Shown: positions 329-55,896 of the stretch, one piece after another
Position numbering within the stretch: the first letter of the stretch is position 1
Layout of the letters: each line of letters begins with the position of its first letter
From: a virus
Taxonomy: Duplodnaviria > Caudoviricetes
Reading direction: 5' to 3' (one strand)
IMG/VR virus record: IMGVR_UViG_3300013121_000033
Coordinates: 128,001 to 192,000 of that record
DNA length: 64,000 bases
Program-made: the position numbers and the translations under genes
The notes under the pieces: generated by a model
The model's input: only the letters and a program-made list of their open reading frames with translations
Databases searched by the model: none
What the model was told of the DNA's origin: nothing

Positions 329-376
329 GTGCGTTCCCGTCTCCAACAGCGTCGCTGGCCTCAGCCACCGCTCTAG
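329..376 (+). CDS. leaderless leader peptide MRSRLQQRRWPQPPL of Pro/Trp/Gln tRNA operon
   Basis: TACCGT -10 at 316-321, GTG 7 nt later; Gln/Trp/Pro-rich; 351-376 pairs with 443-469. Confidence 0.75.
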   Translation: MRSRLQQRRWPQPPL

Positions 377-2599: not shown

Positions 2600-5500
2600 C
2601 GGAACAACGGGATGACGTTGCCGCCATCATCATCGCCTTCGTCGGGTTCGGCGGGCGTCGTAGGGATCGGTTCCCCCGCCTGTTCCAACACGGCACGAGC
2701 GAGCATCTTGACGCGGTCGGCGTCGACCTCCATGAGCGGCGTGATCCGCTCGATCGACGGGTCCTCGATCGGTTCCGCCTGCTGCTTCTTCACTCCCAAC
2801 ACCTCGATCATCGGCAGGTCGGACCCGACATCGGACGTAAGGAAGTACGCGAGGACCGGATGGTTCTCCTGACCGGGCCGATTCAATCGGCCAATGCACT
2901 GCGCATGCATCGACGGTGTCCAGTCGAGTTCGCCGAACACGCCGACGTGGCAGACGTCTTGGAGCCCGTTGAGCCCGGCACCGGACCGCAAGCTCATGAT
3001 GAACACGGCGGAGCCGCCTTCGTTGTTCGGGCGGCGGAACCTGTCGAGAGCGTCGCGTTTCTGTGTGTCCGACTCTGCACCAGTGAACTTGACCGGCCGA
3101 TGCTTCGCCAACCGTTCCATCCAGATGTCGTAGCACGCGTGGTGCCATCCCCAGAGGACGACTTTGTCGACCGATTCGAGTAGTAGCTCAACGAACGCTG
3201 CGACGTATGGGGCCTTCGCGATGCCGGTTGCTTGGCGGAGGCGGACGTCCAACTCGCCTGCGGCCTGCCACCGGTCCGTCGTGGGTGTCTCTTGGGAGAG
3301 GATGAACCGGGCGAGTTCCGCGGCGTTGCCGGAGAGTTGGTCGTAGACGTCGATGTCGTGGTCGACGACCTGTTCGATGCGGAGCGGTTCGATCCCGGGG
3401 AGTTTCACCCCGACCATGACCCCGGAGTCCCGGAGGAACGAACCGAGCGCAGCGGGGTTGGCGACACGGGGCTTGCCGCCGTAACTCGACCCGCACCATT
3501 CGCGCAGGAACTCGTGTCGTTCGCCGAGCGCGTCGGGGCGGACGATGCTGTAAATCTCCCAGAGGTCGCCGCCGTAGTTCGTTACTGGTGTCGCGGTGTT
3601 GTGGACGAGCACTCCGTCAGCGACGAACGAGGGGTGTCCTACCATCTCTAGGTCGTACACCACGTCCGGGCTTTCGAGGTCGGCCTCAACTGAGCGGACA
3701 GCGGCTTCTTTGAGCTTGTTTCGCCCCCAGTCGTATCTGACTCGGTTACCTCGCCAACCGAAATTGTCGCCGGACTCGGCATGCGCTGACCAGTTGACTG
3801 AGAACGCGTTTCTTGTCCCTACGATCTTCCGTCCATGGGCGTCAGCCCCGCCCGCTCCTGTCCCGGTCCGGCAAGACAGGCTGCCTTGGGCGCCCAAGCT
3901 TCGGAGCAGGCTGAGCAGGGACGTGGCGAGGGGTTTCGAGACGGTCGTGTAGTACCGACGACCGTCTCGACCCACACTGCCGTCGCTATCAACCAGTCCT
4001 CGGAGTAGTTCGCGACGAGCCGTTTCGGGCCACGAGATGATCCACTCACCTGGGATGAACTTGTCGTAGCAGTTGGCGCCTCTGGTCGTGCGGCGCAGCA
4101 TCTCGGAGAACAGAGGATGACTGAATCGCACTTCGACGCTTCGGCCGTTGCCCGGCCGCAACTTGGGTTCGAGGGCGACATGTGGCAGGTTGGCGACCAT
4201 GTCCATCATGTGCTCAGCAAGGGCGTCCTCGACGGCGAGCCCGACGCGGGTGCCGTCCAACCAGCCGTCGCCGAGGTAGAAGCCCAAGAGGTAGGCCCAG
4301 TCGCTCAAGTTCACAGATGCGGCGATCCATCGGTGCCCCCGACCGATGCCCTGGTATGCGCCGGTCGGCGGAGGGAGAAGTGCCGCATGTTGGCGGTAGA
4401 TGTCGGCTGGCAGACGGGGGCCGAACTTGGCTTCTTTGTGGAAGTTCTGCCATTGCCACGCTGTGACGCCGATGTCGTGTCGGGTGATACCAGCGGTGTC
4501 GACGACGACTTGGCCTCGGACGAGGTCGGCAGCAAGGTCGGCGAAATCGAAGGGCTGTTCCGCTACGGCAGCCCAGCCGTTCCCGTCGTCGCCAGCGAGC
4601 CGGTCCCCGGGGGTGAGCCCGTCAGCGCGGACAAGGTCGAGCCCGCGAGCGGCAACGCGGTACACAGAGTGTTCATCGGTGAGCGTAAGGCGACCACTCG
4701 GAACGCGGAGCGTCGTCGTGGTGGTGTCGCACCGGTGGCGGAGGAAGGTGCGAACTGGCTTCCAGCCGAACCTCTCCCCAGTCCACCCCCGCGACCTGAC
4801 ATCAAGGTGTTCCACTCGAAACAGTTCGTGGATGCCCCAACATTCTGGCGCCACTTCTTTCGCCACAAGTCGCGTCGCTTCCTCGATAGTCCCTACCCAC
4901 CCCGTGCCGAACGGACCACCTATCATCTCGACCACGCTGTCTGGACCGACGCTCAGGCCGACGACGTAGTTGGCTTTGTCGGCGATCGTCGCGGCGGCGG
5001 TGCCTTTCACGGTCGAGGTGCCGTTGCGGAGTTCCTGGACTTCGTCGAACACGACGGAACGGATCGCCCCTGCGAGATGCTGCGACCAGCCGCCGAGCTT
5101 CGAGTAGGTCGTGACGTACACGTCGGGTGGCCGGACGTGGCGTCGTCCGAGCCGGGTGCGCATCGGGTCGTACGGTGTGCCCTTCGTGACGACGTGGACG
5201 TGGAAGTCGGGCCACGTCGCCTTGATCTCGTTGTACCACTGGTGTTGGAGGTGGGGGGCGGCGACCACCAGGCCGGGGAGGGCGTCCGGGTTCCGGAACG
5301 TGAGCGACCCGCTATAGGACTTACCGGCTCCGAGTGAATCGGTGATGAGTAGCCGCTTGACGACCGAGACGATGTCGGCGTTCGTCCGCTGGTGATCCCA
5401 TCGTGGGGCGCGGGCCGGGATGCGGAAGTCGCCGTCGACGGGGTGTCCAGCGAAGATCGAGACGATCTGGTCGCCGATCCATCGTTGCCGGTCGGCTACC

Positions 5501-5721
5501 GCGGTCAGGTGCGCTAGGTCGTCGGCGCCGACGTCAAGCGGCCAGCGGATCAGGGACCACTCGATGTCGAGCGCGACATCGTCGGACTCGGCGACAACGA
5601 TCGTCCCGGAACGAGTCGCTAACGCTCGTGGGAACAGGCGCTTGAGACGGACCGCGACGTGTGGTTCGACGTCGAACACCCAATAGGTGTCCTCGCGGGT
5701 GAGGGTCCCGTAGGTGCGCAT
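2596..5721 (-). CDS. SNF2-family helicase containing an intein
   Basis: DSLGAGKS, DEVQ, L-TATP motif III, SLRSGAGLNGLQ, QCIGRLNRPGQ; ATG 5721 after TAGCAT. Confidence 0.92.
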   Translation of the reverse strand: MRTYGTLTREDTYWVFDVEPHVAVRLKRLFPRALATRSGTIVVAESDDVALDIEWSLIRWPLDVGADDLAHLTAVADRQRWIGDQIVSIFAGHPVDGDFRIPARAPRWDHQRTNADIVSVVKRLLITDSLGAGKSYSGSLTFRNPDALPGLVVAAPHLQHQWYNEIKATWPDFHVHVVTKGTPYDPMRTRLGRRHVRPPDVYVTTYSKLGGWSQHLAGAIRSVVFDEVQELRNGTSTVKGTAAATIADKANYVVGLSVGPDSVVEMIGGPFGTGWVGTIEEATRLVAKEVAPECWGIHELFRVEHLDVRSRGWTGERFGWKPVRTFLRHRCDTTTTTLRVPSGRLTLTDEHSVYRVAARGLDLVRADGLTPGDRLAGDDGNGWAAVAEQPFDFADLAADLVRGQVVVDTAGITRHDIGVTAWQWQNFHKEAKFGPRLPADIYRQHAALLPPPTGAYQGIGRGHRWIAASVNLSDWAYLLGFYLGDGWLDGTRVGLAVEDALAEHMMDMVANLPHVALEPKLRPGNGRSVEVRFSHPLFSEMLRRTTRGANCYDKFIPGEWIISWPETARRELLRGLVDSDGSVGRDGRRYYTTVSKPLATSLLSLLRSLGAQGSLSCRTGTGAGGADAHGRKIVGTRNAFSVNWSAHAESGDNFGWRGNRVRYDWGRNKLKEAAVRSVEADLESPDVVYDLEMVGHPSFVADGVLVHNTATPVTNYGGDLWEIYSIVRPDALGERHEFLREWCGSSYGGKPRVANPAALGSFLRDSGVMVGVKLPGIEPLRIEQVVDHDIDVYDQLSGNAAELARFILSQETPTTDRWQAAGELDVRLRQATGIAKAPYVAAFVELLLESVDKVVLWGWHHACYDIWMERLAKHRPVKFTGAESDTQKRDALDRFRRPNNEGGSAVFIMSLRSGAGLNGLQDVCHVGVFGELDWTPSMHAQCIGRLNRPGQENHPVLAYFLTSDVGSDLPMIEVLGVKKQQAEPIEDPSIERITPLMEVDADRVKMLARAVLEQAGEPIPTTPAEPDEGDDDGGNVIPLFR
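3598..4953 (-). mobile_element. intein (452 aa) with LAGLIDADG endonuclease in helicase motif III
   Basis: Ser1 SVGPDSVV; TLTDEH block B; LLGFYLGDG and LLRGLVDSDG; VYDLEM...VLVHN/T. Confidence 0.92.
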
Positions 5722-5738
5722 GCGGGCGGCGATGCTAC

Positions 5739-6335
5739 CTACAACCCGCCGCCGACATAGATGACGGTGAGGGTGCAGGGGCCGACCGTTCCGGGGAGAC
5801 GCCGGTGCGTGACGCGGGTCGTGACAACGACCAGGTCGGTGAGCCGCGGGTCCTTCGAGTAGCGGAGTAGCTGCGCGAGTAGCGTCGTGTCCGACCCTTT
5901 GACCTTCACCTCGACGCCGACGGTGCCGTCGACGACGAAGTCGATGCGGTCCCTCGGGGTGAGGCGCACTTCGCGTTGGTAGGGGAGCGCGGCGGCGTCG
6001 AACGCTTCGGCGAGCCCGGCTTGGAGGTCGTGTTCGCTGGCGTAGCTGTACTTCCACGAGCGCACCGCGGCGACGACCGCCGCACGGGGGTCACCGGCGA
6101 GGTGGGCGGGCCGGTGGGTGTCGTCGACGTACGCGCCATAGATCGACGCGACCGACCGGCGGAAGTCGATCCAGTCGGACAGGGTGGTCGGCCCGGGGCG
6201 GCAGTCGAGGCACCCGTCCGCCGTGGCGGTGTGGATGTCGACGCCGAGCAGTGAGAACCGGGCGACGGTGTACCCGTCCGGGGAGTCGACCCACACGGTA
6301 CGACCATCGGACCGGATCAGAGGGTCGATCGCCAC
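5739..6335 (-). CDS. hypothetical protein with PD-(D/E)XK nuclease-like C-terminus
   Basis: EHDLQ...RIDFVVDGTVGVEVK...QLLRY. Confidence 0.65.
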   Translation of the reverse strand: MAIDPLIRSDGRTVWVDSPDGYTVARFSLLGVDIHTATADGCLDCRPGPTTLSDWIDFRRSVASIYGAYVDDTHRPAHLAGDPRAAVVAAVRSWKYSYASEHDLQAGLAEAFDAAALPYQREVRLTPRDRIDFVVDGTVGVEVKVKGSDTTLLAQLLRYSKDPRLTDLVVVTTRVTHRRLPGTVGPCTLTVIYVGGGL

Positions 6336-7681: not shown

Positions 7682-8311
7682 TCAGGGGGTCGGGTTGGGG
7701 TCGGTGACCCCGAGCGCGACGGACGCGACGAACGTCCCGTCGGCAGGGTGGTCGCCGTGGTCGCTGTCCCACAGGATCGTGTTGCCCCGGGTGCCGTACG
7801 TCTCGATCTCCCACGCTCCGCCGAGCGAGGAGCCGGGGTTCCACCAGGCGGCGAACCCTTCGGGGTCGACGCCGTTCTCGACGTCGGGGGCGTTGTGGAC
7901 GGCGCGGACCTCGACATGCGGGGTCGAGTAGACGGTGGACATCGCGACGGTGACGTGCCACGTCCGCCGCTCGGGGTCACGTTCGGTGAGGGTCCGGGCG
8001 ACGTGCGGGACAGCGGCGACGGTGACCGCGATCTGCGGTTCGCAGAACCCGAGCGGGTCGCTGTCGTTGTGCTCGACGAACAGGCGGCGGGCGGACGGAC
8101 CGAAGTAGCCGATGACCTGGCCGTTGTAGGTGCCGATCACCGAGTCGTTGCGGATGCCGACGCTCGGGTCTGCCGGGTCGACCTCGGCGTCGCGGAGGAC
8201 CGCCCCGGCGGGGAGGAACACGGACGGTTCCCGGTCCGGGTCGACCGGGTCGTCGGGACCGGGGTCGACGTTGTCGTAGAACGCGACGGGTTCGAGCAGT
8301 CGCAGGTCCAT
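7682..8311 (-). CDS. hypothetical protein (MDLRLLEP...)
   Basis: TGATG overlap with upstream mini-gene. Confidence 0.7.
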   Translation of the reverse strand: MDLRLLEPVAFYDNVDPGPDDPVDPDREPSVFLPAGAVLRDAEVDPADPSVGIRNDSVIGTYNGQVIGYFGPSARRLFVEHNDSDPLGFCEPQIAVTVAAVPHVARTLTERDPERRTWHVTVAMSTVYSTPHVEVRAVHNAPDVENGVDPEGFAAWWNPGSSLGGAWEIETYGTRGNTILWDSDHGDHPADGTFVASVALGVTDPNPTP

Positions 8312-26449: not shown

Positions 26450-26525
26450 TGGCACGAGGGGGATTCGAACCCCCGACCTCCGGGTTATGAGCCCGGCGAG
26501 CACAACCAGACTGCTCCATCGTGCT
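26450..26525 (-). tRNA. initiator tRNA-fMet(CAT)
   Basis: loop CTCATAA, GGG/CCC in anticodon stem, 1:72 mismatch. Confidence 0.92.
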
Positions 26526-26562
26526 CCGACGGATGATAGCGGTTCCGTCACTTCGTCACTCG

Positions 26563-27087
26563 TCATTTCCACTTCGGGGTGTTCAACTCCGCCATCCGGC
26601 CGAGACAGGCGCCTTGGCCGATCTGTGTCCAGGTGACCGGCCCGTACGTCGTGACCGGGGCGACGGCTCGGACGGCGCTGTCGGCGGCTTCGATGTCGTC
26701 GGGGATGCCCTCGAAGAGCCGGTAGTACCGGGCCGACACGATCTCCTGAACCCATGGTCCCGGTGGGTCGATCAGGCGGCGACCGGCTACTTCGATCGGT
26801 TCCACGATCGGGGTCGGCGGCCTGGCTTCGTAGTGCACCCAGAACCGCAGCGGTCGGTCCAGGTCCGTGATCCCGTTGTGGACGACCAGATCGTCGAGGT
26901 CATCGGCAGGGATACGGATGCCCCACACCTCTCCGGCGAGGTAGACGGGAAGGTCACCGGTCGGGGCGACGCCACGACAGACTCCACACGCGCCAACGGC
27001 GAGCGACGACGGGTCGGTGAACGCCAGGCTTGTGACCAGGCATGTGCACCGGTGGAACGGCACAGCGAGCCCGTACCTCGACTTCAT
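26563..27087 (-). CDS. hypothetical protein
   Basis: TGATG overlap with rtcB stop. Confidence 0.65.
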   Translation of the reverse strand: MKSRYGLAVPFHRCTCLVTSLAFTDPSSLAVGACGVCRGVAPTGDLPVYLAGEVWGIRIPADDLDDLVVHNGITDLDRPLRFWVHYEARPPTPIVEPIEVAGRRLIDPPGPWVQEIVSARYYRLFEGIPDDIEAADSAVRAVAPVTTYGPVTWTQIGQGACLGRMAELNTPKWK

Positions 27088-28253
27088 CAGGTCCCCTTGT
27101 AGTTGAGCAGAGCGGTGAGGCGGTGCAACGGGCGGACCAGGTCGGCCTGTGCGTCCATCACGTTCTCGATGTCCTTGTAGGCGCGGGGGTCCTCGTCGAT
27201 CAGCTTTGCAGCGTCGCTGTCGTTCCACGCCTTCCCGGCCATCGCGTCGCGCAACCCGTCGAGATCGAGGTTGCGGCGCGCCTGGTTGCGGGACATGCGA
27301 CGCCCGGCGCCGTGCGAGCACGACTCGTAGCTGGCCGGGTTCCCGAGCCCTTCGACGATGTAGCTCCCGGTCGCCATCGACCCGGGGATGATCCCGAGGT
27401 CGCCGACCCCGGCACGGATCGCGCCCTTCCTTGTGACCCACAGGTCGACACCGTGGTGGTGCTCGCGGGTGCAGTAGTTGTGGTGGCACTGGATCGTGCG
27501 GACGGGTTCGAAGTGGTAGCCGACCGCTCCGGCGACCTGAACGAGGACGGCGTCGAGCATCATCTGCCGGTTCAACGCGGCGTAGTCCTGCGCCCACAGC
27601 ATCGCCGCGATGTACGCGTCGAACTCCGGGGTGCCCTCTACGAGGTAAGCGAGGTCAGGGTCGGGGATGTCCGCGAGCGCAGCGCCCATCGCCCTCTCTG
27701 CGGCGGCGACGTGGACGTCTGCCAACTGCTTGCCAACCCCGCGGCTCCCCGAGTGCAGCACAACCCACACCCGGTTGCGTTCGTCGGCGCACACCTCAAC
27801 GAAGTGGTTGCCGGACCCGAGCGACCCGATCTGTGTGTCCATCGCCGTTTCCATCCGGTCGGTCATCCCCTCAGGGCGGCGGGCGAACAGGTCGGCAACT
27901 TCGGCGCTGTGGGTGCGCCGGTCGTGACCGCGGCCCGCCCCGGCAGGGACGACAGCGGCGATCGCCGAGTGGAGCTTCCCAAGGTCGTCGGGGAGCAGGT
28001 CCACCGTGAACGGACACTCGACGGCCCCCATCCCACATCCGATGTCGACGCCGACGGCGGACGGGATGACCGCGGCTTCGGTCGCGATGACCGATCCGAC
28101 GGTCGCGCCAAACCCGAAGTGTGCGTCGGGCATGAGCGCGATCGGTTCGTGGACCACGGGGAGTGACGCGCTGTCGGCGGCCTGGCCGATCGTCTTGTCG
28201 TCGAGGTCGGCTGCCCAGGAGAGGACGTTCGGGCGGATGAAGGTGGGGGCCAT
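27087..28253 (-). CDS. rtcB: RtcB RNA ligase
   Basis: MPDAH, VGVDIGCGM, GSGNHF, HSGSRG, HHNY, IIPGSM, SHGAGR, KG C-terminus. Confidence 0.96.
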   Translation of the reverse strand: MAPTFIRPNVLSWAADLDDKTIGQAADSASLPVVHEPIALMPDAHFGFGATVGSVIATEAAVIPSAVGVDIGCGMGAVECPFTVDLLPDDLGKLHSAIAAVVPAGAGRGHDRRTHSAEVADLFARRPEGMTDRMETAMDTQIGSLGSGNHFVEVCADERNRVWVVLHSGSRGVGKQLADVHVAAAERAMGAALADIPDPDLAYLVEGTPEFDAYIAAMLWAQDYAALNRQMMLDAVLVQVAGAVGYHFEPVRTIQCHHNYCTREHHHGVDLWVTRKGAIRAGVGDLGIIPGSMATGSYIVEGLGNPASYESCSHGAGRRMSRNQARRNLDLDGLRDAMAGKAWNDSDAAKLIDEDPRAYKDIENVMDAQADLVRPLHRLTALLNYKGT

Positions 28254-35026: not shown

Positions 35027-35788
35027 ATGCCCACCTACGGTGCCGCGAAGCGGCGCGACATGATCCGTTCCGTGCTGCCGTCGTCCCGCTATCGGACGGC
35101 GAGCGCTGACAAGCGGACGACGAATCGGCGGCTCCGCCGTGCTGTCCGCCTCAACCTGGCGCGCCTCGACGGCGACGATCTCACGGACCGCGCCTACGCG
35201 AACATCGGTGCCGCTGAGGGCTGGTATCGCCGGGACATCTACGAGATCGTGTTCGACCGCCGCCAGGGCGACAAGGCGTCGGCGCTTGAACGGTGGGCGC
35301 CGCACCAGGTGGCCCACATTCGGATCGAGGACCGGTTGTCGCGGATGGCGGCGATGCTGCCCGACTCGACGGTCGGCCGTCACGCTCTCGACCATCTGCG
35401 ATGGCTGCCCGAGTTCGAGGTCGAACCGCGGTACCGGTGGCGGCCCACTCCGGAGGAATGGGCTCGTCGGGATCGTGAAGAGTGGATCGCCGCGTGCCGG
35501 TATGCGGCGATCCGGGCGCGGCTGCTGTGGGTGTGGGACCACGACCTGATCGGCGTGTTCAACGCTCAGGTCGCGCAGGCTCCGGACATCGCTCGTGGCG
35601 GGGTCGACGACCCGGGGTATCCGCCTGTCGAGCGGCGGAACCACCACGCTGCGGTCGGGTTGGTCGACGGCGGCGGGATCGACTCGTGGCTGTGCGCGAA
35701 CCTGGTGTCTCGGACGGCGTGGCGGCCGCGGCCGACGGACCTGCCGCGGCGGCTCGAAGCGTGGCTCGCTGACGTCGCCCCGTTCTAG
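35027..35788 (+). CDS. hypothetical protein (MPTYGAAKRRDMIRSVLPS...)
   Basis: GAGAGG RBS; codon bias. Confidence 0.75.
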   Translation: MPTYGAAKRRDMIRSVLPSSRYRTASADKRTTNRRLRRAVRLNLARLDGDDLTDRAYANIGAAEGWYRRDIYEIVFDRRQGDKASALERWAPHQVAHIRIEDRLSRMAAMLPDSTVGRHALDHLRWLPEFEVEPRYRWRPTPEEWARRDREEWIAACRYAAIRARLLWVWDHDLIGVFNAQVAQAPDIARGGVDDPGYPPVERRNHHAAVGLVDGGGIDSWLCANLVSRTAWRPRPTDLPRRLEAWLADVAPF

Positions 35789-36258
35789 ACGGACCGAAGC
35801 TTCGGCGGCCGCGGTTCGTCTGCCGGTTTGCCGACGACTTCGCATCCGTCGTCACCGCAGAGGAACCCGACGCCTGTCTCCGGGTCGGGCAGGTAGAACC
35901 AGCGGGGTGCGTAACCGGTGAGGGTCGCGAGACGGCGGACGTCGTCGACGGTCGGGATGATCGTTCCCGCTTCCCACCCGTCGACCACCGTGTCGAACGC
36001 GTCGGCGACGCCGAGCGCTTCGTCGACCTCGGGGCCTTCCATGCCGTTGAGGTCGAGAACCATCGTGATCCGTGACGGGCTCGGCCGGTCAGCGAGCCGG
36101 GTGAGTCCACCGCGGTCCACCTGCGGGTCGACGTGAGGGACTTCGGGATGGAGGGGGACCGGTGCTGGGTGTTCCTCGACGAGCCCGCCGCCGGGCCGGT
36201 AGCAGCGGACCCAGAGCCGACCGTGTTCGTCGCGACGCCACCAGTCCGGTTGTCCCAC
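35785..36258 (-). CDS. hypothetical protein with HTH-like region
   Basis: ITMVLDL...EVDEALGV...WEAGT...LATLTG. Confidence 0.65.
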   Translation of the reverse strand: MGQPDWWRRDEHGRLWVRCYRPGGGLVEEHPAPVPLHPEVPHVDPQVDRGGLTRLADRPSPSRITMVLDLNGMEGPEVDEALGVADAFDTVVDGWEAGTIIPTVDDVRRLATLTGYAPRWFYLPDPETGVGFLCGDDGCEVVGKPADEPRPPKLRSV

Positions 36259-36272
36259 GCCACGAAGATAGA

Positions 36273-36348
36273 TGGTGCCCCTGGTAGGACTCGAACCTAC
36301 GCACGCGGCTTCGTAGGCCGCTGCTCTCTCCAACTGAGCTACAGGAGC
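36273..36348 (-). tRNA. tRNA-Arg(ACG)
   Basis: cloverleaf, CCA. Confidence 0.95.
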
Positions 36349-36349
36349 T

Positions 36350-36425
36350 TGGTGGGTCAGGTGGGGCTCGAACCCACGACCGTCCGATTAAAAGTCGGTG
36401 GCTCTACCAACTGAGCTACTGGCCC
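36350..36425 (-). tRNA. tRNA-Lys(TTT)
   Basis: loop CTTTTAA, CCA. Confidence 0.95.
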
Positions 36426-36429
36426 GAGG

Positions 36430-36513
36430 TGGGTGCGGTGGGATTCGAACCCACGAAGGCTTGCGCCGCTGGATTAAGAGTCCAGACCCGTTGACCGCTT
36501 GGGTAACGCACCC
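36430..36513 (-). tRNA. tRNA with Lys(CTT) anticodon and long variable arm
   Basis: loop CTCTTAA, V-arm GGCGCAAGCC, class II-like D arm. Confidence 0.88.
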
Positions 36514-36517
36514 GTGT

Positions 36518-36594
36518 TGGTGCCCCCGGCCCGGTTCGAACGGGCGACCTTCCCCTCCGGAGGGGGACGCTCTATCCGACTGAGCTACGAGAGC
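36518..36594 (-). tRNA. tRNA-Arg(CCG)
   Basis: loop CTCCGGA, CCA. Confidence 0.93.
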
Positions 36595-36613
36595 GAGACT
36601 GCTGTGTTGCCCG

Positions 36614-36687
36614 CTGCGCCCCTGGGCCTCGAACCCAGAACATCCGCCTTAACAGGACGGTCCCCCTGCCAGTAGGGGCCGAGCGCA
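36614..36687 (-). tRNA. tRNA-Asn(GTT), atypical D region
   Basis: loop CTGTTAA, G73; G at position 8. Confidence 0.82.
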
Positions 36688-36725
36688 ATCGCTAACTGTC
36701 ACACCTCCTGGTTACCGTCTCGGCG

Positions 36726-37124
36726 ATGCCCTACAAAGACCGCGAGGCGCAACGCGCCTACCAGCGTGAGTGGATGGCGCGCCGTCGCCGCGAGTGGATC
36801 GAGGCTCACGGCCCGTGTGTCGACTGCGGGTCGTGGACCGACGACCTGGAAGTCGACCACGCCGATCCCGCTTCGAAGGTGATGAATCCCACGTTGGTCT
36901 GGTCGCGACGAGCCGCAGTCCGCGACGCCGAGTTGGCGAAGTGCGTCGTCCGCTGCCACAACTGCCATCTCCGCAAGACATCTCATGAGCGGGCACCTCA
37001 GCACGGAACGGACAACATGTACGGCAAACACGGTTGCCGCTGCGATCCATGCCGAGCGGCTAGGGCGAGGGCTAAGAAGGCGAATCGTGACAGACGGAAG
37101 GCGTTGGGCCTAGCCCGCCAGTAG
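36726..37124 (+). CDS. HNH endonuclease inside tRNA operon (antisense)
   Basis: CVDC...LEVDH...CVVRCHNCH; leaderless TACCGT promoter. Confidence 0.88.
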   Translation: MPYKDREAQRAYQREWMARRRREWIEAHGPCVDCGSWTDDLEVDHADPASKVMNPTLVWSRRAAVRDAELAKCVVRCHNCHLRKTSHERAPQHGTDNMYGKHGCRCDPCRAARARAKKANRDRRKALGLARQ

Positions 37125-37143
37125 ACGGCCTAAACGCCTAATC

Positions 37144-37219
37144 GGTGACCGACCGGGTTCGAACCGGCACGTCGCACGGGGACACAACCCGCGGCTCTAC
37201 CTGTTGAGCTACGGTCACC
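37144..37219 (-). tRNA. tRNA-His(GTG)
   Basis: G-1:C73, loop TTGTGTC. Confidence 0.9.
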
Positions 37220-37252
37220 ACGAGCGGGGCCAGACGACGAGCGAGTACGCGG

Positions 37253-37363
37253 TCAGGCCCCGGCGGGGTTGCGATGTCGCAGCCCGCGCCGTCGCTTTCG
37301 GCGCGCAGCAGCGTCGACAAGTTTGTCGCGGAGCGCAGCAGCGAAGGCGTCGGCGGAGGTCAC
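37253..37363 (-). CDS. leaderless leader peptide MTSADAFAAALRDKLVDAAARRKRRRGLRHRNPAGA of His/Asn/Arg/Lys tRNA operon
   Basis: TACCGT -10 at 37371-37376; codons AAA, AAG, CGC, CGA, CGG, CAT, AAC. Confidence 0.72.
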   Translation of the reverse strand: MTSADAFAAALRDKLVDAAARRKRRRGLRHRNPAGA

Positions 37364-37823
37364 GCCCGACACGGTACCGGGACAGGTGCGGCGTGTCGAC
37401 CGATTTCTCGGGGTGGTGTCGGGCGCCGCGGTTCGCGCACGCCTGCTCCGTCGCCGCCACGGCCGGGGGTGAACACGGCAACGACGGGACCGACCCGTCT
37501 CATAGATGCCACGTCTGCGACTGCGGCGGCGAGCGCAGAAAGACGGACGTCAGCGGCGGCCGGTCGGCGGGTCGCTACGGTCACGGTGACCTCGGACCCG
37601 GCTGTGAGGAACAAACGGAGCTTCGCTGCTTCGTAGCGGGGCAGCCCCTCGATGGAGGGGCGGACCGTCATCTGCTCGATCCGGCAGCCTCGATCTTGTA
37701 GACCTCGCGGAGCGGGATGCGCCACGCCTGCCGTCGCGTCACGGTCCCGTCTGCGTTGACCGACGTGATCGTCGTCTCTTGCGGGAGTGCGGAACTGGTG
37801 TTGCGGGTCATCGCCGCGTGACG

Positions 37824-38042
37824 TTAGCCGCGGCGGGCGAGTTCGGCGTCGATCGCTGCGATCGCCCGGTCAGCGAACTCGGCGACTGTGACACCAGCGG
37901 CGGCGGCCCCGGCAGCGAACTGGTCGCGGCGGAGCGTGACGCGTGGTTTCGGTGGGAGACGTGGGCGGACGGTCGGCTGTGGGCGGGTCGGCTGTGTGCC
38001 TTTCGGGGTGACCCGGCCGCCGCCTTTCTTCGGGCGGGCCAT
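37824..38042 (-). CDS. small basic protein (MARPKKGGGRVTPKGT...)
   Basis: ORF in operon. Confidence 0.65.
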   Translation of the reverse strand: MARPKKGGGRVTPKGTQPTRPQPTVRPRLPPKPRVTLRRDQFAAGAAAAGVTVAEFADRAIAAIDAELARRG

Positions 38043-38043
38043 G

Positions 38044-38247
38044 TCACTCCACCACGGTGAGCGCGTTCGATCCGTAGGTGGCAGTCCGGTCGGTGCCGTC
38101 GATGTCGACGACCACAGACCATCCGTTGCTGTCCTCGCCGACGACACCCGTGACGCCGTCGTTGGCGACGACCCGGGTTCCGGCGGTGAACGTCTCGCGG
38201 GCGATCCGCAGGGCGCGGCGCACCTCGGGCGGGGTCAGTGCCCCCAT
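38044..38247 (-). CDS. hypothetical protein
   Basis: ORF in operon. Confidence 0.55.
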   Translation of the reverse strand: MGALTPPEVRRALRIARETFTAGTRVVANDGVTGVVGEDSNGWSVVVDIDGTDRTATYGSNALTVVE

Positions 38248-38666
38248 GCCGCGTCCTCCGCTGCCATCGCCTGCTCCTCGCGGACCAGGCGGTCCATCTC
38301 GGCGACGTCGAAGTCCTCGACGTACTCGGGGGGTTCGTGCTTGTGGTCGGCGACACAGAACCCGCAGACCGACACGAGCGGGTCGCCGTTGATGTCGTAC
38401 TGCGTGGAGGCGAACAGGTCGGCGGCCTCAGCGACCAGTTGGGAGTGGGCGCCGATGTCGCAGGCGTCGCAGCCGCCGATGACGTTGCCGTCGATCCCGG
38501 TAGCCGCCATGGCCTGTGCGAGCGCCTTCACGGTCGGCAGGTTGGCGTGGTCGACAGCGAGCTTCGCTGCGGCGGCGCACACGGCTTCGAGGACGGAGTC
38601 GCACTGTGCGTCCGAGAGCCGAACGACCGTGTCGGAGTCCGGGGTGGTGTCGTTGTCGTTGTCCAT
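38235..38666 (-). CDS. hypothetical protein (MDNDND...)
   Basis: cassette ATG; CDAC/CGFC pairs. Confidence 0.75.
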   Translation of the reverse strand: MDNDNDTTPDSDTVVRLSDAQCDSVLEAVCAAAAKLAVDHANLPTVKALAQAMAATGIDGNVIGGCDACDIGAHSQLVAEAADLFASTQYDINGDPLVSVCGFCVADHKHEPPEYVEDFDVAEMDRLVREEQAMAAEDAAWGH

Positions 38667-38702
38667 GACCCCACCCTACCCGAATGTTGTGGTCACGTCA
38701 AC
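38664..38702 (-). promoter_or_regulatory. MDND promoter cassette copy 8
   Basis: GTTGACGTGACCACAAC...TAGGGT. Confidence 0.85.
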
Positions 38703-39006
38703 GTTTGCGGATGGTGGCGGCGAGTTCCCGCTTGATGGCGTTCAACTCGGCGAACCTGACCATCCCGTCAGCGATCTCCGTTTCCGTCTCCCGGAGCCAG
38801 TGCTCCGACGCGGCAGGCCACCGGACGCGGTCCTGGCCGTACACAGCCACGATTGACATGACAAGATCAACGAGCGTCTGGCGGAGAACCACGAGGTCCC
38901 TGGCCGCCACGTCGCAGGCCGCGGAGATGTCGTCGAGTTCCGAAGCCAGTTCGTCCAACGACCACGTAGCGATCGTGTCAGCGTCCATGATCGTCCGAAC
39001 CGTCAC
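38698..39006 (-). CDS. hypothetical protein
   Basis: GTGA overlap with 17-aa MDND mini-gene. Confidence 0.65.
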   Translation of the reverse strand: MTVRTIMDADTIATWSLDELASELDDISAACDVAARDLVVLRQTLVDLVMSIVAVYGQDRVRWPAASEHWLRETETEIADGMVRFAELNAIKRELAATIRKR

Positions 39007-39056
39007 CGAGCCCGAGCGGCCGCCTGGTCGGTGAGAGAGATCGTGTCGTTGTCCAT
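39003..39056 (-). CDS. 17-aa mini-gene MDNDTISLTDQAAARAR
   Basis: cassette ATG; stop overlaps next GTG. Confidence 0.55.
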   Translation of the reverse strand: MDNDTISLTDQAAARAR

Positions 39057-39092
39057 GTGCACACCCTACGTGCCCGTTGTCGTCACGTCAAC
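39054..39092 (-). promoter_or_regulatory. MDND promoter cassette copy 9
   Basis: GTTGACGTGACGACAAC...TAGGGT. Confidence 0.85.
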
Positions 39093-39270
39093 GTTGGGGG
39101 TGATGCGGGCGATCCATTCGCTCGTCGTCTCGTCAGGGCGGCGGTCGTGCTTGCGGGCCTTCGGCACGGACGCCATCTCCAAGACCGTCCCGAGGTTGGC
39201 CTCGCCACGTCGAGTACCGACCGCGCGTCCCATGTTCTCGGTGCCCACAGACGACACAAGCTAGCGTTTG

Positions 39271-39342
39271 AGCGCCCCCCGGGAGTCGAACCCGGTTTCC
39301 ACGCTTTGCAGGCGCAGCCCTCGCCGTCCGGTGCCGAGGCGC
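39271..39342 (-). tRNA. tRNA-Cys(GCA)
   Basis: loop CTGCAAA, U73; atypical D arm. Confidence 0.85.
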
Positions 39343-39349
39343 ATCGCTA

Positions 39350-39404
39350 CCTTCGACCTCACCCTTATCAGGGGTGCGCTCTAAACCTGCTGAGCTACCT
39401 GCCG
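39350..39404 (-). pseudogene. truncated tRNA-Ile(GAT) (no T arm or 3' acceptor strand)
   Basis: intact D arm and CACCC-CTGATAA-GGGTG, then AGGTCG with no TTCGA. Confidence 0.8.
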
Positions 39405-39405
39405 T

Positions 39406-39481
39406 TGGAGCGACCGACCGGATTCGAACCGGTACAACCAGGGTGGGGTCCTGGCGTGCTAACCGTTCACACTACGGTCGC
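39406..39481 (-). tRNA. tRNA-Gly(CCC), C33
   Basis: GCG acceptor, U73 CCA, loop ACCCCAC. Confidence 0.87.
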
Positions 39482-39496
39482 AGAGGTTGTGTGCGT

Positions 39497-39570
39497 TGGA
39501 GCGGATCACCGGAATCGAACCGGTTCTTCCAGGGTGGCGTCCTGGTGTGCGGCCTTCACACCCGACCCGC
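39497..39570 (-). tRNA. tRNA-Gly(GCC), C33
   Basis: GCG acceptor, U73 CCA, loop ACGCCAC. Confidence 0.85.
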
Positions 39571-39571
39571 A

Positions 39572-39648
39572 TGGCGCCACCGAAGGGACTCGAACCCTCG
39601 ACCTTCCGCTCGACAAGCGGCTGCTCTCACCATCTGAGCTACGGCGGC
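39572..39648 (-). tRNA. tRNA-Asp(GTC)
   Basis: loop TTGTCGA, G73 CCA. Confidence 0.92.
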
Positions 39649-39667
39649 ATAGATGAAGTTGTCAGGG

Positions 39668-39740
39668 TGCCCTCGCCAGGATTCGAACCCGGGCTCGTAC
39701 CGTTAGGACCGGTCTGCTCTATCCGCTGAGCTACGAGGGC
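39668..39740 (-). tRNA. tRNA-Arg(CCT)
   Basis: loop GTCCTAA, A20. Confidence 0.9.
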
Positions 39741-39801
39741 GTGACGGTCGATGTTCCTGTTCTGTGCCTTCGCTTCACGATTCGTCGTTCCTTTCAATCG
39801 G

Positions 39802-39879
39802 TGGAGCCGGTGGTCGGACTTGAACCGACAACCTGACGTATACAAGACGCCTGCTCTATCCAAGTTGAGCTACACCGGC
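39802..39879 (-). tRNA. tRNA-Thr(TGT)
   Basis: GCC acceptor, loop CTTGTAT. Confidence 0.92.
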
Positions 39880-39881
39880 AT

Positions 39882-39957
39882 TGGAGCCCTCGCCCGGGAT
39901 CGAACCGGGGACCTCATCCCTACCATGGATGCGCTCTACCAACTGAGCTACGGGGGC
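39882..39957 (-). tRNA. tRNA-Thr(GGT)
   Basis: loop ATGGTAG. Confidence 0.94.
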
Positions 39958-39958
39958 G

Positions 39959-40034
39959 TGGAGCCTGTGACCCGGATCGAACGGGTGACCTCCGCTTTAC
40001 GAGAGCGGCGCTCTACCAACTGAGCTACACAGGC
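39959..40034 (-). tRNA. tRNA-Thr(CGT)
   Basis: loop CTCGTAA. Confidence 0.95.
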
Positions 40035-40053
40035 AACGATGTTTTGCCTTGCG

Positions 40054-40129
40054 TGGTCCAGGTCGGAATCGAACCGACGACCCCTCGCGTTTCAGGCGAG
40101 TGCTCTCTCCGAGTCTGAGCTACTGGACC
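40054..40129 (-). tRNA. tRNA-Phe(GAA)
   Basis: loop CTGAAAC. Confidence 0.93.
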
Positions 40130-40157
40130 GAGAACCGATCCAGCCTGCTCGACGGGA

Positions 40158-40250
40158 TCAGCGACAACGTCCGCCGCCGATCCCGGTGGTATCGGTGATA
40201 CCTCGGGGACCGGCGGTGGGGAATGTCCTGATCGTCAGCGTCGAACGCAT
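40158..40250 (-). CDS. leaderless leader peptide MRSTLTIRTFPTAGPRGITDTTGIGGGRCR of the Phe-Thr3-Arg-Asp-Gly2-Ile-Cys tRNA operon
   Basis: TAGTGT -10 at 40258-40263, ATG 7 nt later; has a codon for every downstream tRNA. Confidence 0.78.
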   Translation of the reverse strand: MRSTLTIRTFPTAGPRGITDTTGIGGGRCR

Positions 40251-40284
40251 GACAGCGACACTACGACACCCGACCGGTGAACGT

Positions 40285-40521
40285 CTACCGGTTTCTCGCG
40301 ACCACGGCGAGGTACCGGTCTGCGAGTTCGGACGCGACAGCGTGGTGGGCGAAGATGAGCGTGACCCCGTTCGCTGCGGGGGGCCAACACGTCGCTGCGA
40401 ACTGGGGTAGCTGAGCGTCGGCGGGGAGGGAGCCCGTCTCGTTCAGCGTCGCGTACTCGGCGTGGAGCGTCGCGAGGTAGTCGTCGGTGAACGTTCGGGC
40501 GAGTTCGTCAGCGCGTCTCAT
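40285..40521 (-). CDS. hypothetical protein
   Basis: ORF, codon bias. Confidence 0.55.
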   Translation of the reverse strand: MRRADELARTFTDDYLATLHAEYATLNETGSLPADAQLPQFAATCWPPAANGVTLIFAHHAVASELADRYLAVVARNR

Positions 40522-40532
40522 CGGTGCTCGTT

Positions 40533-40808
40533 TCAGTCGGTGGGTGTCTCGTTGAGGCCGTCGTTCGCCGACCGGTACATGTCGTAGATGTCCTTGCACG
40601 CCTGGCACATCGGCAACCGGCGCGGGTCGCGGGACGGCACCCAGACGTGGCCGCACAACGCTTCGAGCGGGGTCCCCTCGATGCGGGCAGTGAGCACCTT
40701 GTCCGCCGCGTTCTCACCGGGACGGGTCTTGACGATGTGAGCGACCGGGCCGTCCTCAGTCGCAGTCGTATCGGACGGGATCGTCGAAGGGGACTCGATG
40801 GTGGTCAA
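40533..40808 (-). CDS. DUF3039-domain protein
   Basis: AHIV...ALCGHVWVPSRDP...CQACKDIY. Confidence 0.85.
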   Translation of the reverse strand: MTTIESPSTIPSDTTATEDGPVAHIVKTRPGENAADKVLTARIEGTPLEALCGHVWVPSRDPRRLPMCQACKDIYDMYRSANDGLNETPTD

Positions 40809-41054
40809 CGGTCACTTCCTGGTCTTGGGTTTGCGGTTTGCGGGCGGGGTGCTTCCCGCGTCCCGCTCGGATGCGGGCGTGGCCGCGGGCGTGCCACGGT
40901 TCGATCGGGTGTTGCTTGCGCCACTCGGCGAGTAGACGGGCGTGTTCGCGCATGGCTGCGGCGAGGTCGTCGGGGTGGGCGGCACGGGCCTGTTCCCACA
41001 GACTGCGGTAGGTCCCGCGGCGGCTCTCGCGGTTCACTGACGGAGGCATCGAGT

Positions 41055-47155: not shown

Positions 47156-47583
47156 CTGGCGTTTCGCTTGTCATTCCACTCTCGCTTCGCCCGGCTACAG
47201 ATGTCGCAGCAGCAGCGCCGCTTCTGCCACGCGTACATCGTGCCGTGGGCGAACCCCTTGTCGATCCCCCTGAACGGGCTCGCCTTGCCGAGATTGGTCT
47301 TTCTGTTGTTCTCCGCTGGGGTCAACAACTGATAGTTGTCGATCCGATCGTCCATCGGGTCATCGTTGACGTGGTCGACGTGCTCGTCGGGGGCCAGCGT
47401 TCGCCCGAGATGCTGTGTCATCTGCCAGCGGGCGTAGGACATGCTGGTCCTGCGACCGTTTGCCAAGTGGATGACGACCTGCCGTCGTGGTCGGCTGCCG
47501 CCCGGACGCACAACGTACGGACCGTAAACCTTTGTGATCGCCACATCGAACGGATTGTGCATTGGGATGGCGAGTTTACTCAC
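47137..47583 (-). CDS. HNH homing endonuclease
   Basis: LGRTLAPDEHVDHVNDDPMDDRIDNYQLLTPAENNRK. Confidence 0.9.
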   Translation of the reverse strand: MSKLAIPMHNPFDVAITKVYGPYVVRPGGSRPRRQVVIHLANGRRTSMSYARWQMTQHLGRTLAPDEHVDHVNDDPMDDRIDNYQLLTPAENNRKTNLGKASPFRGIDKGFAHGTMYAWQKRRCCCDICSRAKREWNDKRNASRRRKA

Positions 47584-47640
47584 GGCGTGTCTGCCAGCTT
47601 TACAGGCTGCCCCACCTCTCCGAACGGTGGCGCGCTCCCC
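47563..47640 (-). ncRNA. non-canonical tRNA-Tyr(GTA)-like structure
   Basis: CAGC-CTGTAAA-GCTG hairpin flanked by further hairpins; no TTCGA loop. Confidence 0.4.
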
Positions 47641-47687
47641 GGTTCCGGGACCGGAAGGCGCGGCTGAATGCTCGTGCGCTCCGGTCC

Positions 47688-47726
47688 CTACGGAAGTAGG
47701 CGGCGGCGATACAAGCGTCGGGTCAC
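47688..47726 (-). CDS. leaderless leader peptide MTRRLYRRRLLP of Tyr/Leu tRNA locus
   Basis: TAGAGT -10 at 47735-47740; rare TTG, TAT, CTA, CTT codons; hairpin follows. Confidence 0.62.
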   Translation of the reverse strand: MTRRLYRRRLLP

Positions 47727-47825
47727 GGCAGAGAACTCTACTCGTCGAGGTCGCCGGTGTCGACGGGGTTGAGTTCGTCGGCGTGTTCCTGACAGAGGTC
47801 TAATCGAGACATGACCATGGTTCGT

Positions 47826-47864
47826 GTTGACGTGACCACAACAGTCGTGTAGGGTGTGGACATG
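47826..47864 (+). promoter_or_regulatory. MDND promoter cassette copy 12
   Basis: GTTGACGTGACCACAAC...TAGGGT...ATGGACAACGAC. Confidence 0.88.
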
Positions 47865-53465: not shown

Positions 53466-53674
53466 CGGGTCGCTTCCCGGTGGTAGCGGGCGACTGTCGT
53501 GAACCTGGTGGTGATGCGCAGGTCGACGGCGTCGCCTTCCCGTTTGTTCCCCGGGGCGGTGACCATCTTGACGAGCATGTCGAACACGGTCTGTGCGAGG
53601 TGCCGGTCGCGGCTCTCGTGGAGGACCACGGTTGGGCCGTCGTCGTCGGCGATCGTGACGAGGTACTTCCTCAC
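53462..53674 (-). CDS. hypothetical protein
   Basis: GTGA overlap. Confidence 0.55.
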
Positions 53675-55725
53675 GGCGTCTCGTCCCAGGTGCGGCCGTC
53701 CAACTCGCGGCCTGCGGCCCTCTTTCCGACGTTGGCGACCCGGACGACGTCACGGCCGTGGAACCCGTGTCCGCCGTCGGCGTTGAGCCACCGACCCGCA
53801 GGGGCCTGATCCGGCGCGTCATCGTCGAACGGGACGGGCACCCACGCGCCCCACTGCTTGAAGAAGAACGGGACGGGCTGCGGGTGACGGCCGACCTGCG
53901 TGACGTGTTGCGACGGTCGAGCGCACACCCAGCAGTCGCCGTCGCCGTCCGTGTCGTTGGGGCATGGCACGGTGGCGGCCTGGCAGCGGTCGCGGAGGTC
54001 ACGTACCCAGTCGGGGTGCATGGGGCGTGCGCCGGGGCCGGACTCGCCACCGACGATGACCTGGTCGATGCCGGTGAGGTCGAGCGATGGGAGCGGACCG
54101 AGGAGCGGTTCGCACGACAGGAAACGCACGGCGGCCGGGGTGGCGCGCAGATGGTCAGCGCGGAACGTGTACCGGTCCGACTCGATCGACGTCCCCAACC
54201 ACACGTTCGGGAGCGGCCACGCGCAGGCGGCGTTCATCTGCTGGCCGATCGGGTACTCGCCGATCCGAGCTTCGACCTTCTCGCGGAACCCGGGATCGCC
54301 TACGACCTTCGCCATCCGCTGCGGCCGCTTGGTGAGCACCTGGAACGTGTGCTGCGACGCGAGCGCCATCACCGCGAACACCTCCACGACGAAGTCGACG
54401 GTCACCTGATCGTGGAACAGGTCCGACATCGAGTTCACGAAGATGCGACGCGGGCGCTTCCAGCGGAGCGGCTGATCGAGCGCGTCAGCGTGGGTCGCGA
54501 CACCGAATCCGGGGCCGGACGTCCGCGGGTCGCCGTCGGTCTGGTAGCGGGCCGATCCCATCGCCTTCAACCGCTTCGCCAACGCCAGCGCGTAGCAGTT
54601 GTGTGTTGCCAGCCCGGCAGCGATGAAGGTGCCAGTTGATGTCTGGATGTCGACTAGGTCGCGCACCCCGAGTCGGCGCACACCATCCACGGGGCTTGCC
54701 GCCTTTGGGAAGCGGCGGCCATAGAAGTCGGCGGCCTTGCGTGTCAACGCTGGCTGGATGCACGACAGGAACCTGACCTTGTCGGTGACGTCTCCGGCCA
54801 GTCGAACGCTTCGGCCTTCGGCGCTGCGGAAGTCCTCCCGTGTCGCCTTGAACCCCAGCCGGTCGATACACCTGACGGTCACGTCGAGGAGGTCGTTGTC
54901 CTTCGACTGGTTGAACCTCAGGTTTCCTCCGCTGTAGCTGCCGTCGGTGTCGAGGAACCCGGCGAGGAACCCGGCCGCCCAGTTGGGGTCGTCGCGCTCG
55001 GGGAGGCACTGGTCGGCGATCAGCAACAAGTTGTCCATCCGCCGAGTTTCGACCTTCGCCATCGGCGCTCTGACGCCACTCTTGGGAGCGAAGCCACTGC
55101 TGCCTGGCCCTTGGTCGAACGGGCGGATCGCGATGTTGGAGCAGCCCAGAGCCACGAGCGAAGCCGCGAACCGTTCCAGCAGCGGCATGTCCGTTTCGGG
55201 GTCGGCGACCCTCATGTACGACTGTTTGGTCCCGCCTTTGCCTGACCCGTCGATTCGCATGGTCCCGTCGCCGCCGATAACCCCGGCGACGTAACCGGCC
55301 CGGTACGCCTCGGTGTCGACGTTGGGGACCCATCCGGGCATACCGATGTCAACGATCAGGGAATCGAGGCCAAGCGAGTCCGCCGTCCGCCAGGAGGGTC
55401 GGGTGGGAGCAAGGAACCGGTGGTCGGCGCTCGCGATGATCGAGCGGTCCCCGACCGTTAGTTCTACCGCCTCCGCTCGCGTAGTCCACACATGTTCGAC
55501 GGCGGCTGTCTCGTACACCCGGTTCTGGCCGACGGACGGGGCCTCCGTGAACGACACAAGAAGGTCGCCGACCTCCACCTTCCCGATCGGCTTCCACCGC
55601 ATGTCGGCCATCAGAACGGGCGTCGCCGGGTCGAGGCAATTTTCGCAGCCGGGCGAGATGCGATCGCAGCCGGTCACCGGGTTCCACGTCGCCTCGGTCC
55701 ACTCGATCCCCGTCTTGTCTCCCAT
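53671..55725 (-). CDS. phage Gp37Gp68 / DUF5131 protein containing an intein
   Basis: [50 protein letters not shown]. Confidence 0.93.
54598..55638 (-). mobile_element. intein (347 aa) with LAGLIDADG endonuclease
   Basis: [42 protein letters not shown]. Confidence 0.93.
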
Positions 55726-55896
55726 CACACGACTCCTACGAGAGGTCTGGCGACACGGTCGGCGTCGCGGCCATCGCACAGCCGCCATTGCACGACACCA
55801 GATCGGCTCGTGTGCATCCACACGCCGTCGACCTGGACGATCCACGCGCCGCAGGCGCATTCTTGGCCCTCGCTCCGGATTCGGGATTCGGTCTTG

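Follow-up and report, generated by a model that had tools for sequence, protein, structure and literature searches.

A short leader ORF with codons for each tRNA encoded behind it: a candidate decoding sensor in a 225-kb virus genome

Background

Does a short open reading frame (ORF) ahead of a viral tRNA gene cluster, in which each of the downstream tRNAs finds at least one codon, serve as a gauge of decoding, or is it a by-product of its promoter? The question is raised by a stretch of 64,000 nucleotides (nt), hereafter the window (bases 128001–192000 of the IMG/VR record IMGVR_UViG_3300013121_000033, a single 225,159-bp virus with 67% GC; coordinates below are those of the window). In it, a 36-codon leader ORF at 37363–37253 on the minus strand, the strand carrying most of the genes that flank it, precedes a tRNA-His gene and, beyond an antisense HNH endonuclease gene, five more tRNA genes. 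Here we report that the leader belongs to a family whose layout recurs at five or six loci of the genome and whose codons match the particular tRNA set that follows each of the five members with intact clusters. The best explanation, to which we give a probability of roughly one half, is that the leader would be a promoter-proximal decoding sensor of a His-Asn-Arg-Lys-Lys-Arg tRNA operon.

Codon matching in the leader ORF and its sister leaders

The leader ORF contains the following features.

37253–37363, minus strand: leader ORF of 36 codons, from GTG at 37363 to the stop codon TGA at 37255–37253
37322–37324, minus strand: AAA codon (Lys14), cognate to tRNA-Lys(TTT) and placed at the apex of hairpin A (see below)
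37268–37303, minus strand: putative sensor run RRKRRRGLRHRN, 12 codons, 10 of them cognate to downstream tRNAs

The original prediction had described an AAA codon followed by a run of Arg, Lys, His and Asn codons, and these are found as described (37324–37322 and 37303–37268), the run containing CGC, CGA, AAG, CGA, CGG and CGC and, later, CGA, CAT, CGC and AAC. Twelve of 35 codons in the ORF are cognate to downstream tRNAs and, again as claimed, each of the six tRNAs called by ARAGORN has at least one. Among stop-free 35-codon windows from the six frames of the genome, all six tRNAs are covered in 2.7% (0.22% if U34 is taken to read A only), and coverage together with at least 12 cognate codons is seen in 0.35% (0.04% with strict U34). 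Arg/His-rich runs of 12 codons are by themselves common in the genome (60 windows); it is because of its Lys and Asn codons that the His-leader ORF is rare.

The arrangement recurs ahead of the Gln/Glu cluster and at the following loci.

316–376, plus strand: leader of the Pro/Trp/Gln cluster, with TACCGT, 7 nt, GTG at 329, 15 codons and a stop codon abutting a hairpin
40158–40263, minus strand: leader of the cluster of tRNA-Phe, three tRNA-Thr, tRNA-Arg, tRNA-Asp and tRNA-Gly, with TAGTGT, 7 nt, ATG at 40250 and 30 codons
49407–49467, minus strand: leader of the cluster of two tRNA-Ser, with TATCGT, 7 nt, GTG at 49454 and 15 codons
47688–47763, minus strand: sixth leader, with TCGACA, 17 nt, TAGAGT, 8 nt, GTG at 47726, 12 codons (among them rare codons for Leu and Tyr) and a stop-codon hairpin

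The His leader has the features common to the Gln/Glu, Pro/Trp/Gln, Phe and Ser leaders, namely a −10 hexamer TAnnGT, 7–8 nt, ATG or GTG, 12–36 codons, a stop codon in or at a hairpin and a matched tRNA cluster. At the locus behind the sixth leader there is a second HNH gene (PF13392) but no intact tRNA: a Tyr-type anticodon arm follows it (47443–47763, minus strand), but neither ARAGORN nor Rfam gives an intact tRNA there. No Leu, Tyr, Ile or Cys tRNA was detected in the genome.

The five leaders with intact clusters (Gln/Glu, Pro/Trp/Gln, His, Phe and Ser, with 19, 15, 36, 30 and 15 codons) cover 3/3, 3/3, 6/6, 7/7 and 2/2 of their own tRNAs, respectively, while every cross-pairing with the tRNA set of another leader is incomplete, the true assignment being the single best of the 120 permutations. 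With all stop-free windows of the same length as the reference, the leaders individually reach p values of 0.071, 0.018, 0.027, 0.0065 and 0.10 for coverage, in the same order. Fisher's method combines them to 1.2e-4, or 4.8e-7 with strict U34, and to 6.9e-9 when coverage and the number of cognate codons are considered together. An intergenic-only null, applied to four leaders (not Pro/Trp/Gln), gave similar p values, and in the same four (Gln/Glu, His, Phe and Ser) full coverage is confined to the frame of the ORF. The Gln/Glu and Pro/Trp/Gln leaders have a common promoter and a common hairpin starting at the stop codon, yet their ORFs diverge in line with their tRNAs. As a member of this family the His leader is well beyond chance, and an initial reading as a chance ORF in GC-rich DNA was dropped following these codon tests and the promoter scans described below. 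In all six leaders, moreover, a local hairpin either includes the stop codon or has it directly at its 5' base, so that a terminating ribosome must open the hairpin.

The ORF could alternatively encode a small basic peptide acting in trans, for example by binding RNA or tRNA, which would agree with its strongly basic C-terminal run and with a start that is leaderless or translationally coupled. We regard this as highly improbable: the 36-aa peptide has no homologue in the phage collection and no PHROG match, the ORF uses rare codons (CGA three times, CAT and AAA), and the compositions of the sister ORFs (Ser-rich, Thr/Gly-rich and Gln/Pro-rich) follow their tRNAs without any common peptide property.

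Promoters and predicted leaderless starts

The region upstream of the leader ORF contains the following.

37394–37399, minus strand: −35 element TCGACA, separated by a 17-nt spacer from TACCGT
37400–37410, minus strand: block upstream of the −35 element, common to the His and Phe-cluster promoters
37371–37376, minus strand: −10 element TACCGT, within the 9-mer GGTACCGTG
37360–37671, minus strand: upstream 103-aa ORFan, whose 3' end contains the leader promoter and whose coding potential is good in the first half only

About 25 copies of a promoter cassette were found between 229 and 62328, consisting of GTTGACG, N6, (C/T)AAC and a TAGGGT-like −10 element (for example at 38701–38666, 47827–47862 and 28887–28852); its box is 17 bp long and contains TTGACG. 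The sequence ATGGACAACGAC stands 6–8 nt after the −10 element, and the unrelated genes located there mostly begin with MDND or similar. This geometry suggests that leaderless messages are the rule in the phage. GTG 37363 lies exactly 7 nt past TACCGT, which matches the geometry of about 25 leaderless gene starts of the genome; the alternative start, GTG 37372, would give 39 aa.

Promoter prediction is unusually clean in this genome owing to the scarcity of TAnnnT (281 sites on both strands of 225 kb). When the whole genome was scanned for TTGACA with at most one mismatch, 16–19 nt and TAnnnT, 30 of the 35 matches fell in intergenic DNA, which makes up 9% of the genome. Only three did not belong to the cassette, all of them ahead of tRNA loci, and one of these is TCGACA-17-TACCGT at 37399–37371. 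The full pattern (−35 element with at most two mismatches, 17–19 nt, TAnnGT, 6–8 nt, ATG or GTG), scanned over 450 kb on both strands, gave only 29 matches, among them about 20 canonical leaderless gene starts and five ORFs ahead of tRNA loci. In a separate search of the 260 nt ahead of each tRNA cluster, in which the start codon was not used, one promoter-like site each was found for the Gln/Glu, His, Phe and Ser clusters, and in each case ATG or GTG follows the −10 element at a distance of exactly 7 nt; the Pro/Trp/Gln cluster has TACCGT, 7 nt and GTG as well, but a poor −35 element. GGTACCGTG is found four times in the genome, in three cases as the −10 region of a leader (His, Gln/Glu and Pro/Trp/Gln), and across about 17 nt at 37394–37410 the His promoter is almost identical to the Phe promoter. 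The promoters of the tRNA loci form a second, related class, dedicated to these loci and distinct from the canonical cassette. At tRNA-Met (26525–26545), TATCAT is followed after 7 nt by the tRNA at position +1, with no leader ORF. This tRNA is probably transcribed without any 5' leader, and a leader is therefore not required merely to express a tRNA.

When metagenomes were scanned with the promoter motif, three unrelated high-GC contigs without tRNAs were found, each with a very similar box and TAGGGT, and ATG or GTG about 7 nt further on (at 185–213, 744–772 and 7689–7717 of the respective contigs). Possibly the cassette imitates a promoter or operator of host type.

Another reading would deny the leader a unit of its own: the region would be the untranslated tail of the upstream operon (38666–37360), the ORF would be due to chance, and tRNA-His would be expressed by read-through from a canonical promoter near 38700. 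The upstream ORFs lie on the same strand and are tightly packed, with ATGA and GTGA overlaps, the latter formed by GTG 37363 and the TGA (37362–37360) of the 103-aa ORF; coding potential is poor in all frames across 37220–37520; and a general consensus scan for sigma-70 promoters found none. On the other hand, the layout of −35, −10, 7 nt and GTG is highly specific in the genome and recurs at other tRNA clusters, an extended part of the promoter sequence is also present at the Phe, Gln/Glu and Pro leaders, and the codons match significantly, which makes this reading quite unlikely. A longer, frameshifted gene over 37220–37671 was rejected, as the coding signal is weak in every frame and no homologue supports it. 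In the 3' half of the 103-aa ORFan (37360–37520, minus strand), which codes poorly, the best frame switches twice, and that gene may end earlier.

The main rival to a sensor accepts the promoter and the leaderless start as real, and takes the short ORF as their by-product, the codon match as coincidence and the hairpin at the stop codon as a generic element that stabilizes, insulates or processes the pre-tRNA. All canonical promoters of the phage also have ATG 6–8 nt after the −10 element, Arg/His-rich runs are common, the codon usage of the ORF is neutral, and no switch-like alternative fold is seen in the free RNA. We nevertheless consider this explanation unlikely, since i) full coverage is specific to the tRNA set at five loci (Fisher 1.2e-4 to 6.9e-9) and to the frame in the four leaders tested, ii) the tRNA promoters differ in class from the canonical cassette, so that mere copying of the cassette does not explain the start codon, iii) tRNA-Met is driven without a leader, and iv) the stop codon is in or at a hairpin in 6/6 leaders.

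The tRNA cluster and the HNH gene

Downstream of the leader ORF are located the following.

37143–37219, minus strand: tRNA-His(GTG), with an encoded G-1:C73 pair (48.2 bits)
36726–37124, plus strand: antisense HNH endonuclease gene between tRNA-His and tRNA-Asn, 132 aa (phrog_4234, E 1.3e-34)
36273–36687, minus strand: tRNA-Asn(GTT), tRNA-Arg(CCG), tRNA-Lys(CTT), tRNA-Lys(TTT) and tRNA-Arg(ACG), with no promoter-like site of their own found

Five of the six tRNAs are supported by the Rfam tRNA model, and tRNA-Asn, called by ARAGORN only, has a normal cloverleaf. tRNA-Lys(CTT) (36428–36513, minus strand; 86 nt, 41.6 bits) has a long variable arm, unusual for Lys, and overlaps weakly with a tmRNA model.

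Within the tRNA arrays of this genome the spacers measure 1–18 nt, whereas the spacer between tRNA-His and tRNA-Asn is occupied by the 399-nt HNH ORF and reaches 455 nt. Most simply, the HNH gene, the best relatives of which are found in mycobacteriophages (up to 52% identity), would have invaded this spacer of a six-tRNA operon. One of the cognate leader codons is for His and eleven are for the five distal tRNAs; that the leader codons point to tRNAs 455 nt away is due to the HNH insertion. The HNH gene has a start of its own on the plus strand, with TACCGT (36713–36718), 7 nt and ATG, in which the −10 hexamer is the same as that of three tRNA leaders, and its transcript would be antisense to that of the tRNA operon. 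Hairpin C (see below) was considered as a terminator for this gene and rejected, there being no T tract on the plus strand.

A single transcript running from tRNA-His through the antisense gene to the last tRNA, as put forward in the original prediction, would fit the HNH-filled spacer and the leader codons. The prediction had named a separate constitutive promoter for 36273–36687 among the findings that would refute it; on the minus strand between tRNA-His and tRNA-Asn no promoter-like site was found, even with up to three mismatches allowed in the −35 element.

Hairpins and ribosome position

Three hairpins are predicted in the leader RNA.

37288–37354, minus strand: hairpin A (−31.9 kcal/mol), in which the Ala-rich N-terminal codons pair with Arg/Lys codons
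37263–37287, minus strand: hairpin B (−13.2 kcal/mol), formed by the G-L-R-H-R-N-P codons
37225–37262, minus strand: hairpin C (−22.5 kcal/mol), with the last codons and the stop codon in its 5' arm, ending 5 nt before tRNA-His (G-1)

Hairpin C is closed by the CGGGGCC/GGCCCCG pairing that had been pointed out in the original prediction. Its stability is matched by 0.35% of random genomic 38-mers and by 0.3% of the regions at the stop codons of 306 coding sequences, the latter comparison being valid for the His and Gln/Glu leaders only, as its fixed 45-nt stop-codon window is too short for the hairpins of the Pro and Tyr/Leu leaders. The hairpin over the L-R-H-R-N codons, which was expected to compete with it, also exists (37287–37263, hairpin B), but the two coexist in free RNA and would be rivals only with a ribosome at the stop codon.

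In a ribosome-footprint model, stem C is kept (P 0.86–0.96) when a ribosome is stalled anywhere from Lys23 to His30 and is lost when the A site is at Asn32 or at the stop codon; with the ribosome at the stop codon, the 3' arm of hairpin C becomes available for pairing with the 5' strand of hairpin B. These results bear on whether the leader is a classical attenuator of the trp/his type, in which hairpin C would terminate transcription intrinsically and a ribosome stalled on the sensor codons would bring about an antiterminator and read-through. Such an attenuator would account for the regulatory codons of the short ORF and for the strong GC hairpin that separates this ORF from the tRNA genes, and U-less 'I-shaped' terminators have been proposed for GC-rich actinobacteria (PMC8914203). 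However, hairpin C lacks a U tract and does not look like a classical hairpin-plus-U terminator, hairpins B and C coexist, a stall in the Arg/Lys run leaves C at P of at least 0.86, and the sole alternative pairing (B 5' strand with C 3' arm) needs a ribosome at the stop codon rather than a stalled one. A trp/his-type device is accordingly improbable here: in this model the leader is sensor-like, but a trp-type terminator/antiterminator mechanism is not supported.

Complementarity to the 5' acceptor strand of the first tRNA was found in the Gln/Glu, Phe and Ser leaders (p 0.005, 0.02 and 0.04, respectively), which hints at control of pre-tRNA folding in these three. As a mechanism at the His locus, anti-acceptor pairing was rejected because it is absent there.

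Proposed function

The sensor reading can be set out as follows. A weak sigma-70-like promoter, TCGACA-17-TACCGT, would start transcription at or beside GTG 37363, and the resulting leaderless message, with its 36-codon ORF, would be translated by 70S ribosomes. The ORF would act as a decoding test with at least one codon per downstream tRNA, ten such codons being packed into a 12-codon run. The progress of the ribosome would decide the state of hairpin C, because the 5' arm of the hairpin contains the stop codon: with the ribosome held in the Arg/Lys run the hairpin would form, and with the ribosome at Asn32 or the stop codon it would melt. Hairpin C would then set the yield of mature tRNA through pausing, through factor-dependent or U-less termination, or through pre-tRNA processing; this output and its direction we infer. 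Of the sensor envisaged in the original prediction, the ORF, placed at a credible leaderless start, and its codon match stand and are joined by the recurrence at four other intact clusters, while the terminator/antiterminator mechanism does not.

Several observations weigh against a sensor. Considered singly, the codon match of the His leader has a p of about 0.03 to 0.002, and the codon usage of the ORF is neutral (−0.08 log-odds per codon) and not gene-like. Leaderless translation is argued from the phage's own gene starts. Hairpin C is followed by CUCGU and then the tRNA, with no U tract, and a terminator scan of 35500–41000 was empty, whereas a few hairpin-plus-T terminators occur elsewhere in the genome. 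No mutually exclusive antiterminator was found in the free RNA, whose minimum-energy fold contains all three hairpins (A, B and C). A stall in the main sensor run keeps hairpin C; if C blocks expression, the sign of the loop would be wrong for homeostasis. The acceptor-strand complementarity of three sister leaders is absent from the His and Pro leaders (p 0.88 and 0.93). Lastly, no related phage genome was found in the collections searched.

More tentatively, the leaders may together form a multi-locus gauge of tRNA supply, in which the speed of translation of each mini-ORF gates its own block. The His block could then sense depletion and switch on replacements after cleavage by host defences; the tRNAs for His, Asn, Lys and Arg are among the usual targets of anticodon nucleases. 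An RNA ligase that would fit the repair of cleaved tRNAs is encoded elsewhere in the window.

27087–28253, minus strand: RtcB RNA ligase (PF01139, E 1e-110), between tRNA-Met and the Ala/Val tRNAs

Genome context and searches for relatives

Genome-wide, ARAGORN called 26 tRNAs across eight clusters; a run with a relaxed threshold was discarded, with 780 false calls. In the gap after tRNA-Gly (39279–39397, minus strand), a tRNA-like match scored 28.5 bits against the Rfam gathering score of 29 bits, and BLAST matches to bacterial tRNA-Ile were found there.

Searches of 50,697 phage records with megablast, blastn and tblastn gave no match for the region, the neighbouring proteins, the 36-aa peptide, or the 938-aa and 188-aa proteins. 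Scans of IMG/VR with a neighbouring protein, a 25-mer of tRNA-His and the promoter motifs gave chance single matches only, and a search of 5.8 billion proteins with the upstream 103-aa ORF gave no match other than the ORF itself. Near the leader, only the HNH gene has relatives in the phage, IMG/VR and metagenome collections. All comparative evidence given here is intra-genomic because no relatives were found, the HNH gene excepted. Insertions of the LAGLIDADG or intein type were observed in an SNF2-type helicase (2596–6057, minus strand) and in a DUF5131 protein (53671–55860, minus strand).

Comparison with known systems

The best-known sensors of this general kind are the leader-peptide attenuators of amino-acid operons, such as trpL, hisL, thrL, leuL, ilvL and pheL (PMC1183508). 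The His leader resembles them in that a short ORF in cis, enriched in codons linked to the product, lies ahead of the regulated genes, with its stop codon beside an RNA hairpin whose folding would be decided by the position of the ribosome; as in thrL and ilvL, several amino acids would be sensed by one leader. It has a same-strand ORF directly upstream of the first gene (tRNA-His begins at 37219) and regulatory codons beyond chance, as trpL and hisL do, but neither their intrinsic terminator with a U tract nor a mutually exclusive antiterminator favoured by a stall. It also differs in that the phage leader would be leaderless, without a Shine-Dalgarno sequence, and in that the genes behind it encode tRNAs and not enzymes, so that the loop would sense the decoding capacity that the operon itself supplies.

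In its sensor half the phage leader is closer to the mycobacterial 'Cys ribulon', where attenuation by ribosome stalling takes place on leaderless, Cys-rich short ORFs (bioRxiv 10.1101/834739), than to the classical attenuators. An A/GUG at the 5' end of a message is all that mycobacteria need to translate it (PMC4633059). Both systems have a run of regulatory codons, several independent loci and a setting of high-GC, actinobacterial type; for the phage leader, an A/GUG at the transcription start, as in the Cys ribulon, is predicted by the promoter geometry. In contrast to the Cys ribulon, the genes downstream of the phage leader are tRNAs, with no ribosome-binding site to sequester; since these are untranslated, the output must be transcriptional or lie in RNA processing. 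Streptomyces 3' ends that are structured but carry no U-tract motif have been interpreted as likely I-shaped terminators (PMC8914203).

Expression tied to the state of specific tRNAs would recall the T-box riboswitches, which, however, bind uncharged tRNA directly and have no ORF; Rfam gave no T-box or other cis-regulatory family (at the gathering score or E ≤ 1), and only tRNA-type models matched. The 132-aa HNH protein gene that splits the His-Asn spacer, together with the second HNH gene in the broken Tyr/Leu locus, resembles the HNH homing endonucleases found in phage tRNA arrays, a likeness that covers the insertion and not the leader.

Leader-peptide sensing is textbook knowledge for amino-acid operons, but in our literature searches we found no report of leader-peptide control of tRNA genes. 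If the reading is correct, the virus would measure the decoding capacity of the cell codon by codon and tune its own tRNA output, which would help to explain why large phages carry sets of tRNAs and how they use them, perhaps to counter defences that cleave tRNAs. Such circuits could then be sought in other phages by a simple sequence signature, a mini-ORF whose codons mirror the anticodons encoded downstream.

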